Shown here piece by piece: positions 1-3,639 of a stretch of 4,809 nucleotides of DNA (its first letter is position 1; each line of letters starts with the position of its first letter). A program made the translations under genes and the position numbers. The notes below the pieces were generated by a model. That model made no database searches. It was given only the letters and a program-made list of their open reading frames with translations, and was not told the origin of the DNA. This DNA is from a virus (taxonomy: Duplodnaviria > Heunggongvirae > Uroviricota > Caudoviricetes): IMG/VR virus record IMGVR_UViG_2660238600_000005. One strand, written 5' to 3'.

Positions 1-711
1 TTACGCCTTCTTTATATCCTCCATAATTCCAGAGTGGGACATATTTGGGACATTATCACCAAAAATGTCGTCTATTTTCCTCGCATGCTCTGTCAAATGA
101 TTAGGCGCAAGGTGAGCATACCTACGAACCATTTCTATGGACTCCCATCCGCCCATTTCCTGAAGCACTGATAATGGGACGCCTGACTGAATCAGCCAGC
201 TTGCCCAGGTGTGTCTGAGGTCATGGAAACGGAAATCTTCAATTCCTGCACGACGACAAGCTGATAGCCATGATGTCTTGCTGTCGATGCGCATCTTCCT
301 GACTGCAGGCGTTGATGTTCCATCTGCTCGCTTAGCCGCCTTGGTATGTACAAACACCCATTTGTGATGCTTGCCTATTTGATCACGCAACACTTTACAG
401 GCGGTATCGTTCAGCGCCACACCAATGGCGCGGTTTGATTTGCTCTCTTCTGGATTCACCCAGGCAACTCGTCGCTGCATGTCGATTTGTTGCCATTCCA
501 GATTTATGATGTTCGACTTTCTCAGACCAGTTGCCAGCGCAAACTTGACGACAGATTTCAGTGGTTCGGGGCACTCATCAATAAGGCGTTTTGCTTCCTC
601 CTTTTCCAGCCATCTGACTCGCTTGTTTCTGACCGCTGGTATCTTGATGACAGGCGCTTTTTCCAGCCACTTCCAGTCGCGTTCTGCAGCACGGAGAATG
701 GCCTTTATCAT
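1..711 (-). CDS. int: Tyrosine recombinase / phage integrase, catalytic domain only; N-terminal arm-binding and core-binding domains absent, so possibly a truncated remnant
   Basis: 236-aa ORF with ATG at 711-709 and TAA at 3-1. Tyrosine-recombinase active-site pattern is present: Arg in [12 protein letters not shown]-x-x-R in [15 protein letters not shown], and the Tyr in VRRYAHL. Reading the same frame upstream of the Met gives only 24 codons before a stop at 786-784, and no integrase-like N-terminus is seen in another minus frame. Confidence 0.85.
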
Positions 712-1386: not shown

Positions 1387-1724
1387 GCATAACTTATGGA
1401 TTATATGGAAAACTGGTAATTATGCTCTTTTCTTATGAAAATAAAGAGAAGTTTTCGCTGGCGTTTTATTTCTTCTGTTTTTTCTTGCGGGTTATTCTGA
1501 TTTGTTTTGATTTGATTTTTTCTGACAAAAGTAGGGAAAAAATATGTCGCAAGTACTTTCTGTCTTTACCTCCTAAATTACATTCTCTATCAAATGTTGC
1601 CATAGTTATGACCCCAGTTTTATATAGTGTTTCAGCAATTTTTCTGTAGTTTTTTTCTCGCAAAATTGAAGAGTTTTTCTTTGCTGTATTTTCAAGGCTA
1701 TCTCCTTGTGGTTTAAGACTATTT

Positions 1725-1778
1725 GGGCCAAAAAACGTTGTGGATACTGCTGCACTTGTTGTCCGTTTTTTTTGGCCC
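1725..1778. repeat. Imperfect ~54-bp palindrome (GGGCC-A6-CG / CG-T8-GGCCC arms around a 26-nt loop) in the AT-rich spacer between convergent gene blocks; candidate bidirectional terminator or protein-binding site
   Basis: Left arm GGGCCAAAAAACG (1725-1737) is complementary to right arm CGTTTTTTTTGGCCC (1764-1778) with two extra T. It lies 86 bp beyond the stop of the leftward Mnt-like gene and downstream of the rightward genes ending at 1386. Confidence 0.55.
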
Positions 1779-1863
1779 ATTTGGATAGTACTTGGGAGAG
1801 GCATGATTTTAATACGCATATAAATAACTCCTCTATCAATTGGATTTTGAGAAAATATTAACA

Positions 1864-2181
1864 TTAATCATGATTAAGGAGTAATTTTAAATCTTCCAAT
1901 AAAATTTGTTTAAACTCTTGTGTTCTATGATCGATATACAACGCAAGTTTGCTTGCATTATCTTCCAGGTCACGTATCTCTCTGTCACCTCGAATAAACC
2001 CAACTAAATTTAAACGTTTAGATAGTTCAGAACTTCCTTCTATGGCATCTTGGAGTATTTGAATGATTTCTGAATTCATTGAGCGCCCGTTTCGTTTGGC
2101 TCGTTCAGCTATAGTTTCACGCATCCCATCAGGGAAACGGAGGTTAAACTTATCGTAGTCTTTTACTTGTTTGTCAGCCAT
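1864..2181 (-). CDS. Mnt/Arc-family ribbon-helix-helix transcriptional repressor, 105 aa, with a C-terminal extension that could be a coiled-coil oligomerisation region
   Basis: N-terminus MADKQVKDYDKFNLRFPDGMRETIAERAKRNGRSMNSEIIQILQDAI matches the Arc/Mnt signature as I recall it (FNLRxP ... NGRSxNSE ... Q). Start chosen at ATG 2181-2179, preceded by a G-run; the track ORF extends to 2211 but the extra 10 residues have no ribosome-binding site and do not fit the family N-terminus. Stop TAA at 1866-1864. Confidence 0.8.
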   Translation of the reverse strand: MADKQVKDYDKFNLRFPDGMRETIAERAKRNGRSMNSEIIQILQDAIEGSSELSKRLNLVGFIRGDREIRDLEDNASKLALYIDHRTQEFKQILLEDLKLLLNHD

Positions 2182-2280
2182 TGGACCCCCCAAAAAAATG
2201 AATGGTGCCATATTGCCACATCAATTCAATGGTGGCATTATGGCCTCATGGTGTCATTGTGGCCTCATGAGGTTATGTCA
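2182..2280. promoter_or_regulatory. Divergent promoter/operator region between the Mnt-like and Arc-like genes
   Basis: Candidate rightward promoter: -35 TTGCCA (2213-2218), 17-nt spacer, -10 CATTAT (2236-2241). Direct repeats TGGCCTCATG at 2241-2250 and 2260-2269 (19-bp register). Perfect 10-bp palindrome CCTCATGAGG at 2263-2272 overlapping the ribosome-binding site of the rightward gene. Further repeats AATGGTG(C/G)CAT at 2200-2210 and 2228-2238. Confidence 0.5.
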
Positions 2281-2439: not shown

Positions 2440-2446
2440 AAACAGC

Positions 2447-2478
2447 GAAGCCCCACTGGCGGCAACCTTAGGGGCTTC
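2447..2478 (-). terminator. Hairpin in the arc-like/ant-like intergenic region; possible terminator of a leftward antisense RNA, by analogy with P22 sar
   Basis: GAAGCCCC (2447-2454) pairs with GGGGCTTC (2471-2478) around a 16-nt loop. On the minus strand the stem is followed by GCTGTTTCT (T-rich); on the plus strand there is no T-run. Confidence 0.3.
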
Positions 2479-2509
2479 TATCGAAAATAACCGCGAAGGA
2501 AATATCGAC

Positions 2510-3178
2510 ATGAGTATTGTAGCAACATCAGATCTGAACTTCCAAGGTGAAGCACTAGTGCCAGTGGCAAATATTGCCGGAATATGGCTAACTTCATCCA
2601 ACCTAGCAAGAGCACTGAAGTATTCGAATAGTCGCGCAGTCACGATGATTTACAACAAATATGCTGACGAATTTTCCAGTAGTATGACTAGAGTGCTTGA
2701 AGTCAGTACCTTAGAGAATGATGTCGAGGTACTTGATCTGAGTACCTCGAAAAGTACTCGAAACTTGAAGAAGAAAGTACGCGTTTTCTCTCTCCGCGGA
2801 GCCCATTTGATCGCCATGTTCGCCCGCACTCCTGTAGCCAAAGAGTTCCGCCGTTGGGTTCTGGATATTCTCGATCGAGAAGTTCAACAATCCCCAATCA
2901 TAAAACAATTCACTGATAACGAACTTTGCACACTTGCTTGGTTGTGGCGAGCTGGGGATGCGATGTTAACCGCCTGCCAGAACGTTACTCCTCTTCTTCA
3001 GGTTGCGGAGCATCGTGAAGCTGGTCGCTTCACTTCTATCGAGCAAGAATATCCCCAGATACTCAATAAGGCACAGGCAATCCTTGCCAGAGAAACGGCA
3101 CATGTAAAATTCCGGCCGTGGCAGGATGATAAGTGGAGTCGAGTTTTGCCGCATTTACGTTCGGATCGATTACAGTAG
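2510..3178 (+). CDS. Bro-N domain protein, antirepressor-like (Ant/Roi-type), 222 aa
   Basis: N-terminal region (FQGEALVPVANIAGIWLTSSNLARALKYSNSRAVTMIYNKYADEF ... VFSLRGAHLIAMFARTPVAKEFRRWVLDIL) matches the Bro-N pattern as I recall it, including the ...AK.FRRWV... motif. Start ATG 2510 has GAAGGA at about 9-nt spacing. The track ORF start at 2429 overlaps the upstream gene and lacks a ribosome-binding site. Stop TAG at 3176-3178. The C-terminal ~95 aa are unassigned. Confidence 0.8.
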   Translation: MSIVATSDLNFQGEALVPVANIAGIWLTSSNLARALKYSNSRAVTMIYNKYADEFSSSMTRVLEVSTLENDVEVLDLSTSKSTRNLKKKVRVFSLRGAHLIAMFARTPVAKEFRRWVLDILDREVQQSPIIKQFTDNELCTLAWLWRAGDAMLTACQNVTPLLQVAEHREAGRFTSIEQEYPQILNKAQAILARETAHVKFRPWQDDKWSRVLPHLRSDRLQ

Positions 3179-3241
3179 ATTCCAATTAACAATGAGAAAC
3201 ACATAGCCACCCCGTGGTATTGAAACCATATAATGTTGGAT

Positions 3242-3270
3242 TTGAAAACAGATCTTTTTCCATGTATTAA
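3242..3270 (+). promoter_or_regulatory. Candidate sigma70 promoter facing the 118-aa gene and nin region
   Basis: -35 TTGAAA (3242-3247), 17-nt spacer, -10 TATTAA (3265-3270) with TG immediately upstream. The spacer contains an imperfect palindrome centred on AGATCT. Confidence 0.3.
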
Positions 3271-3438
3271 TAACTACATCCCCGCGAGTGATTCAAAAAG
3301 GAGGGCCCAATTTTGTCCGAGTTTTTGTATTCCCCCGCATGCCGCTGCGGAGCACTACATCTGAGTGTCTGACTAGGGGATAAAATTAGACTGGATAGTG
3401 AGAAGAAAGTGGCGTGCTAGGCTGTGCCGAGTGCTACC

Positions 3439-3562
3439 AGTACACCCTGGGGGTGTGCAGCTTTCGCCGAGACTGTAGTGGGTATCGGTTAATGCACGAA
3501 AAACCGAGAGGTCAGACAACCAATTTGCCGTAGGATTGTTTCCGGTGCGATACCGGTGTACT
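3439..3562 (+). other. Nested long-range complementarity in an ORF-free region; candidate structured RNA/leader or DNA site of unknown function
   Basis: AGTACACC (3439-3446) is complementary to GGTGTACT (3555-3562), and GGTATCG (3481-3487) to CGATACC (3548-3554). The two 3' partners are contiguous, giving a 15-bp interrupted helix enclosing internal segments. No ORF of 60 aa or more on either strand between 3211 and 3639. Confidence 0.25.
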
Positions 3563-3639
3563 AACTGAAAGCAATGCGAAAAAGCATAAACTCGGTCCTT
3601 CAGTCGCCCTACACACTATTTACTAAGAAGGGCTAAAGC

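Follow-up and report, generated by a model that had tools for sequence, protein, structure and literature searches.

A P22 immI-type antirepressor module with three like predicted operator units in a defective DLP12-like prophage

Gene content and genomic context

The window, that is the whole stretch of 4,809 nt analyzed here, carries a leftward gene for a Mnt-like RHH protein and a rightward gene for an Arc-like RHH protein, set apart by a 99 bp spacer (2182-2280) that holds all the repeats described below ( Table 1 ). That both flanking genes encode RHH proteins, the second of them Arc-like, had been proposed in an earlier note made from the sequence alone; Pfam and structure matches agree with this and identify the first protein as Mnt-like. 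When compared with solved structures, the Mnt-like protein finds its top match in P22 Mnt (1mnt, 1.7e-8), followed by AmrZ (3qoq). Its β-ribbon reads DKFNLRFP, which gives the residue triad K-N-R, and is followed by a C-terminal extension of about 55 aa. The ribbon of the Arc-like protein reads VKITLRYP (triad K-T-R).

Beyond the Arc-like gene a sar-like antisense RNA is predicted, whose match spans the full length of the Rfam model and covers the ribosome-binding site of the antirepressor gene (ant); a promoter-like TTGGAA-18-TACAAT with TG, recovered by promoter scan at 2545-2516 on the minus strand, is placed to start this RNA. With the start at 2429, as annotated in RefSeq and in the PhiR5_1 record, the antirepressor gene overlaps the last part of the arc-like gene. 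The location of the sar-like RNA, together with an AAGGA Shine-Dalgarno at 2497-2501, suggests the ATG at 2510 as the start. Judging from its sequence, the locus is a P22 immI-type antirepressor module residing in a defective DLP12-like prophage, given that the Mnt-like gene, the Arc-like gene, the sar-like RNA and the antirepressor gene stand in P22 order. Their orientations are also those of P22 immI (mnt / Pmnt-Pant / arc / sar / ant).

A query of 801 bp (1800-2600) is 99.3% identical to Escherichia phage PhiR5_1, and near-identical copies of the same stretch were found in five E. coli chromosomes; in the one chromosome that was examined, the module lies in a DLP12-type defective prophage adjoining intD at tRNA-Arg. 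Its position, between ren and ninB of a defective lambdoid prophage of the DLP12 kind, is unlike that in P22-like phages, where the module occurs in the late-operon 'ant moron' (PMC2629481).

An intD-like integrase ORF (1-711, minus strand) encodes 236 aa, the N-terminal part of the 387 aa full-length IntD being absent. This ORF adjoins a C-terminal piece of replication gene P (779-1096), after which comes ren. This junction indicates that the immunity and replication regions were deleted and that the immI-type module was thereby orphaned in a defective prophage. In one piece, the intD/P-fragment junction (1-1386) occurs in none of the complete E. coli genomes of the collection. The mnt-like gene is immediately followed by a low-GC ORF (1466-1864, minus strand) that could encode up to 132 aa, has no Pfam match and is variably annotated, as two small ORFs in PhiR5_1 and as 117 aa in strain 99COLEC. 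The 460 bp at 3179-3639 contain no convincing ORF and gave no Rfam match; a structured RNA was considered for this region and rejected, on the missing Rfam match and on a fold of 3330-3620 that is no better than those of shuffles (z = -0.7). A longer ORF is annotated for the region in PhiR5_1, suggesting an indel difference.

Table 1. Features of the antirepressor module and of its control region, in window coordinates.
Feature	Position	Strand	Basis or placement
Mnt-like RHH repressor gene, 105 aa	1864-2181	-	Pfam Arc 4e-20; "Arc family protein" in RefSeq
Predicted operator unit A, AT-GGTGCCA-TAT-TGCCACA-TC	core 2204-2220, extended 2202-2222		over -35
Weak mnt promoter candidate: -35 ATGCCA (2238-2233), 17-nt spacer, TGgCAATAT (2218-2210)	2210-2238	-	by eye
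Candidate -35 TTGCCA of arc-ant (Pant-like) sigma-70 promoter	2213-2218	+	promoter scan, 9/12 matches, 17-nt spacer
Predicted operator unit O2, AT-GGTGGCA-TTA-TGGCCTC-AT	core 2231-2247, extended 2229-2249		over extended -10
Candidate extended -10 TGgCATTAT (hexamer CATTAT 2236-2241)	2233-2241	+	promoter scan, TG before hexamer
Predicted operator unit B, AT-GGTGTCA-TTG-TGGCCTC-AT	core 2250-2266, extended 2248-2268		about +3 to +19
Arc-like RHH gene, 52 aa	2281-2439	+	Pfam Arc 1.4e-4; P22 Arc structures matched at 1e-4 to 1e-3
Predicted sar-like antisense RNA	2444-2508	-	Rfam RF00262, 34 bits, E = 3.8e-4; gathering score 43 not reached
Antirepressor gene, Bro-N and P22AR C-terminal domains	2510-3178	+	Pfam P22_AR_C 1.2e-16, Bro-N 5.9e-9

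Repeats of the spacer form three copies of one unit

The repeats listed in the earlier note are present as reported. TGGCCTCATG occurs exactly twice in a 19-bp register (2241-2250 and 2260-2269), at least two matches being obtained in 5 of 200 shuffles, and the pair AATGGTG(C/G)CAT lies at 2201-2211 and 2228-2238, a count reached by 1 of 200 shuffles. A repeat finder returned, in addition, a 19 bp tandem repeat (2229-2247 / 2248-2266, 89% identity), longer than the one reported before, and a pair of inverted arms (2202-2219 / 2232-2249) that are 83% complementary. Also, CATGGTGTCAT at 2247-2257 is a degenerate third copy of the AATGGTG(C/G)CAT motif. The pattern GGTGNCANNNTGSC, with at most one mismatch, has four matches in the 4809 bp, all of them in the spacer, where 0.5 would be expected and where none of 200 shuffles yielded at least four.

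All these elements can be described by a single pseudo-palindromic unit, ATGGTGNCA-N3-TGSCCNCAT, with a 17-bp core of 7-3-7 geometry and three occurrences, in which AATGGTGSCAT is the left arm and TGGCCTCATG the right arm. The six arms of units A (GGTGCCA, TGTGGCA), O2 (GGTGGCA, GAGGCCA) and B (GGTGTCA, GAGGCCA) all fit G-R-K-G-N-C-A, and are heterogeneous in that GCCA, GGCA and GTCA types occur side by side. The three units likewise fit the 7-3-7 / GNC-N5-GNC form, with inverted half-sites about 10-11 bp apart across an A/T-rich centre. Most likely, the repeats represent three copies of one repressor-binding site of 17-21 bp over the antirepressor promoter. The unit centres are spaced 27 and 19 bp apart, out of helical phase, and the O2-to-B distance ranges over 18-20 bp in relatives, a variability that speaks against a fixed cooperative array.

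Candidate promoters beneath the units

The repeats had been suggested to overlap divergent promoters, and this stands for the rightward direction, where a sigma-70-like site was recovered by scan and from which we infer a transcription start near 2248. A promoter-like sequence occupies the same position in about 60 related loci (TTGACA, a spacer of 16-17 nt, then TAAATT or CATAAT), the -35 at the matching position in P22 is also TTGACA, and 40 nt lie between the -10 and the arc ATG both in the window and for P22's annotated Pant. The centre of unit B follows the last base of the -10 at 17 nt, the corresponding distance being 14-18 nt in about 45 related loci. For the leftward direction, a strong promoter of the mnt-like gene on the minus strand was rejected, as none reached the scan threshold, and only weak candidates were picked out by eye. 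The one listed in Table 1 matches at 7/12 positions plus TG, below the scan threshold, and mirrors the Pant-like promoter inside O2 and A; by likeness to the overlapping Pant/Pmnt of P22, it is a weak candidate for the divergent mnt promoter, much weaker by consensus than that of P22. For the -10 CATTAT, as for the mnt promoter, the assignment is a guess from the consensus.

Mirrored, overlapping divergent promoters combined with a local duplication might by themselves account for the repeats, with no dedicated repressor binding, considering that A and O2 each hold a -35-like hexamer on one strand and a -10-like hexamer on the other and that Pant and Pmnt of P22 overlap likewise. This explanation seems to us hardly credible. 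Unit B lies outside both promoter cores and yet has the same arms, the arm positions outside the hexamers vary with the ribbon of the Mnt-like protein, and the geometry is that of the P22 palindrome and of the AmrZ site.

The palindrome over the Shine-Dalgarno

CCTCATGAGG at 2263-2272 is a perfect 10-bp palindrome that includes the GAGG Shine-Dalgarno (2269-2272), separated by 8 nt from the ATG at 2281, as had been pointed out previously. It is composed of the end of the right arm of unit B (...CCTC), the AT flank of this unit and the GAGG Shine-Dalgarno of the lineage. The symmetry is absent from the ~92%-identical locus of E. coli SCU-113, which has CCTCACAAGGAG instead, and is also lost in Edwardsiella phage GF-2, in the Stx phages and in all more distant relatives; the Shine-Dalgarno of relatives is AAGGAG. 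Among the eight closest spacers the right half varies as well (CACAAGGAG, CCTTAAGGAG, TTTAGGAG, CCAAATAAAGGAG). On this comparison, the palindrome is a strain-specific accident confined to its lineage, and the proposal that its perfect symmetry marks a functional site is not supported, for lack of conservation. An RNA hairpin at the same place was considered and rejected: the segment 2248-2310 folds at -12.4 kcal/mol (z = -0.8), and 39 of 200 shuffles fold at least as well. The block to translation initiation that had been attributed to the palindrome is not upheld either, the site being one of DNA and the RNA of the 5'-UTR folding no better than shuffles.

Variation of the units in related loci

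To place the units in a wider frame, related loci were gathered by DNA similarity, through Mnt-like and Arc-like proteins in IMG/VR and through an alignment of Mnt-like proteins in GTDB genomes, which gave a comparative set of about 60 loci. When the eight closest spacers are aligned, the columns without variation coincide with the arm blocks, namely ATGGTGCCATATTGC in unit A and TCAATGGTGGCA plus ATGGCC in O2, while GG-G-CA and TGGC are invariant in unit B. Conservation in the spacers of relatives centres on the repeat blocks, in agreement with the earlier view of the repeats as a regulatory element. The form N5CA-N3-TGN5 fits repeated sites in every group of related loci, and units A, O2 and B change together from locus to locus.

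These observations bear on the model of the earlier note, in which the two motifs formed two operator classes, one for each RHH repressor, and the palindrome blocked both transcription and translation. The spacer is flanked by two RHH genes, P22 is generally known to have two different operators, and both TGGCCTCATG and AATGGTGSCAT are statistically unusual, all of which speaks for two classes. The model is nevertheless very improbable, as the motifs always abut as the arms of one unit, a third copy of each exists, and both vary together in relatives. Also, neither the palindrome nor the RNA fold holds up in the comparisons given above, and a repressor bound to DNA does not act on a ribosome-binding site in mRNA.

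Across the roughly 60 loci, the arm sequence sorts by the ribbon triad of the Mnt-like protein, with the exception of one sub-group ( Table 2 ). In this sub-group (L020, L022, L084 and L091) the outer arm is GGGATTA and not GGGGCCA, despite an unchanged K-N-R ribbon (DKFNLRFP) of the Mnt-like protein. The Arc-like types differ among these four loci, and in the two with a confidently called start (L022 and L091) the Mnt-like protein has A or T, not S, as its second residue.

Table 2. Operator arms associated with each ribbon triad of the Mnt-like protein.
Mnt-like ribbon triad	Arm	Remark
K-N-R	GG(T/G)G(C/T)CA	
K-V-R	GATGGCA	full site GATGGCA-TAT-TGCCATC, layout as in AmrZ site
R-N-R	AGCACCA	
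R-T-R	RRCATCA	
K-M-R	ATGTCA or CTATCA	
K-T-R	AAGGCA	
H-N-R	AGGTCCA	P22

Natural exchanges of the two repressor genes point in the same direction. Arms of the K-M-R class are kept with three Arc-like ribbon types (S-Q-R, K-M-R, Q-Q-R), also in a Duganella locus; locus L059 and the Stx phage locus L003 agree in their Mnt-like type as well as in units A and O2, their Arc-like genes being unrelated; and the Arc-like type TTLRYP is combined with three different Mnt-like classes and with three types of arm. Together, the class table and these exchanges favour the Mnt-like protein as the binder. A pairwise permutation test on the fixed-offset arms of 46 distinct loci did not discriminate between the two proteins: DNA identity averaged 0.63 where the Mnt-like triad alone was shared, 0.59 where the Arc-like triad alone was shared and 0.43 where the pair had neither triad in common. 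The modules are inherited together. We consider it probable that A, O2 and B are three copies of one operator over the arc-ant promoter, each copy being bound, as we infer, by a dimer-of-dimers of the Mnt-like protein; the exceptional sub-group, the mixed arm types of the window and the outcome of the pairwise test count against this reading.

In search of a separate operator for the Arc-like protein, loci with the same Arc-like but different Mnt-like type were compared, and the reverse; neither the promoter spacer nor the stretches upstream of A and downstream of B contained any element tracking the Arc-like type. This could mean that both repressors use A, O2 and B, either in competition or by binding side by side, the GCCA arm suiting the Asn ribbon of the Mnt-like protein and the GGCA arm the Thr ribbon of the Arc-like protein. 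In the window the arms are indeed GCCA/GGCA in A, GGCA/GCCA in O2 and GTCA/GCCA in B, and GGCA arms occur in K-T-R or K-V-R loci, AmrZ (K-V-R) being a reader of GGC. Moreover, the two proteins agree in their triad in many loci, as listed for L003 (K-N-R/K-N-R), L072 (K-M-R/K-M-R), L094 (P-G-R/P-G-R), L100, L104, L108 and L115, with Q-K-R/Q-K-R also represented, and the members of such pairs may read the same half-sites. We nonetheless regard shared use of the units as unlikely, considering that GGCA arms are retained in the Stx phage locus L003 in spite of a K-N-R ribbon in its Arc-like protein, and that R-T-R ribbons pair with ATCA arms and not with GGCA, so that the code is not simple. Also, we know of no mixed RHH tetramers in natural systems. 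That the clade has no separate operators at all, both RHH repressors reading three hybrid units and the switch being thrown by competition or by mixed dimers-of-dimers, is a decidedly unlikely arrangement.

Comparison with known RHH operators

The spacer of P22 holds a perfect palindrome, AGGTCCA-CGG-TGGACCT, which we take to be the 17-bp mnt operator (Omnt). It is a 7-3-7 site whose centre follows the -10 at 15 nt, which is where unit B sits in the window. In P22 there is one Omnt, and an Arc operator of another kind lies within the promoter spacer, whereas the window has three copies of one unit over the -35, the -10 and the start. The P22 Arc operator is presumably the 21 bp ATGATAGAAGCACTCTACTAT with its TAGA boxes; no TAGA-box pair resembling it occurs in 2182-2280. 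From this comparison, the control region appears as a variant of the P22 immI switch in which three like operators are present and no Arc operator can be recognised, and a literature search on the operators of this clade returned no specific description. The locus of Erwinia tracheiphila (L087) shows a P22-like layout in the first 90 nt upstream of its Mnt-like gene, with a near-perfect palindrome AACCCCA-CGG-TGGGGTC downstream of the -10 and a half-copy, GGTATTA-CCG-TGGGGCT, in the promoter spacer, where P22 has the Arc operator; its Arc-like gene looks degraded.

A second point of reference is AmrZ, which binds GGC-N5-GCC as a dimer-of-dimers, residues K18, V20 and R22 of the ribbon reading the half-sites across an A/T-rich linker (PMC3325190). 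The units of the window resemble the amrZ1 site of the Pseudomonas aeruginosa complex (PDB 3QOQ) in having the form G(C/G/T)C-N5-G(C/G)C with linkers ATATT, ATTAT and ATTGT. The central ribbon residue differs, being Val in AmrZ and Asn in the Mnt-like protein, and AmrZ, which has two sites at its own promoter, is a chromosomal virulence regulator and not a phage immunity protein. In the multi-site RHH arrays of MetJ (met-boxes), omega (heptads), ParG and CopG, each ribbon reads a short sub-site (PMC3413123). Like the window, these arrays place several adjacent RHH units over a promoter, but their units are of 7-8 bp and in strict phase, while those of the window are of 17-21 bp and spaced at 27 and 18-20 bp.

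Proposed mechanism and significance

In P22 lysogens Mnt keeps the antirepressor off (PMC12922286). By the preferred reading of the units as three copies of one operator of the Mnt-like protein, a Mnt-like dimer-of-dimers would sit on each of them, placing one β-ribbon per 7-bp arm in the major groove, across the A/T-rich centre, and occupation of A, O2 and B would exclude RNA polymerase from the arc-ant promoter, so that the antirepressor stays off. Unit B alone may block the rightward promoter, leaving the weak leftward candidate uncovered, while A and O2 would additionally shut the leftward promoter, a hierarchy of B versus A and O2 that is presumed here. Feedback on this region by the Arc-like protein is presumed as well, by analogy with P22 Arc, which acts on both Pant and Pmnt (PMC2724298).

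Antirepressor modules decide prophage silence and can act in trans on other prophages. The defective prophage in which the present module resides lacks an immunity region near it, and close relatives of the module occur in Stx-converting phages. Nothing in the established picture is overturned; rather, the P22 paradigm is extended to an arrangement of three like operators with no recognisable Arc operator. If both repressors did share the units, a simple ribbon-to-arm recognition code would be readable from natural module swaps. The comparative table is, in any event, a natural data set of RHH ribbon residues against half-sites, which could aid the prediction or engineering of specificity, and the defined operator units are targets for testing how expression of the antirepressor is held off.
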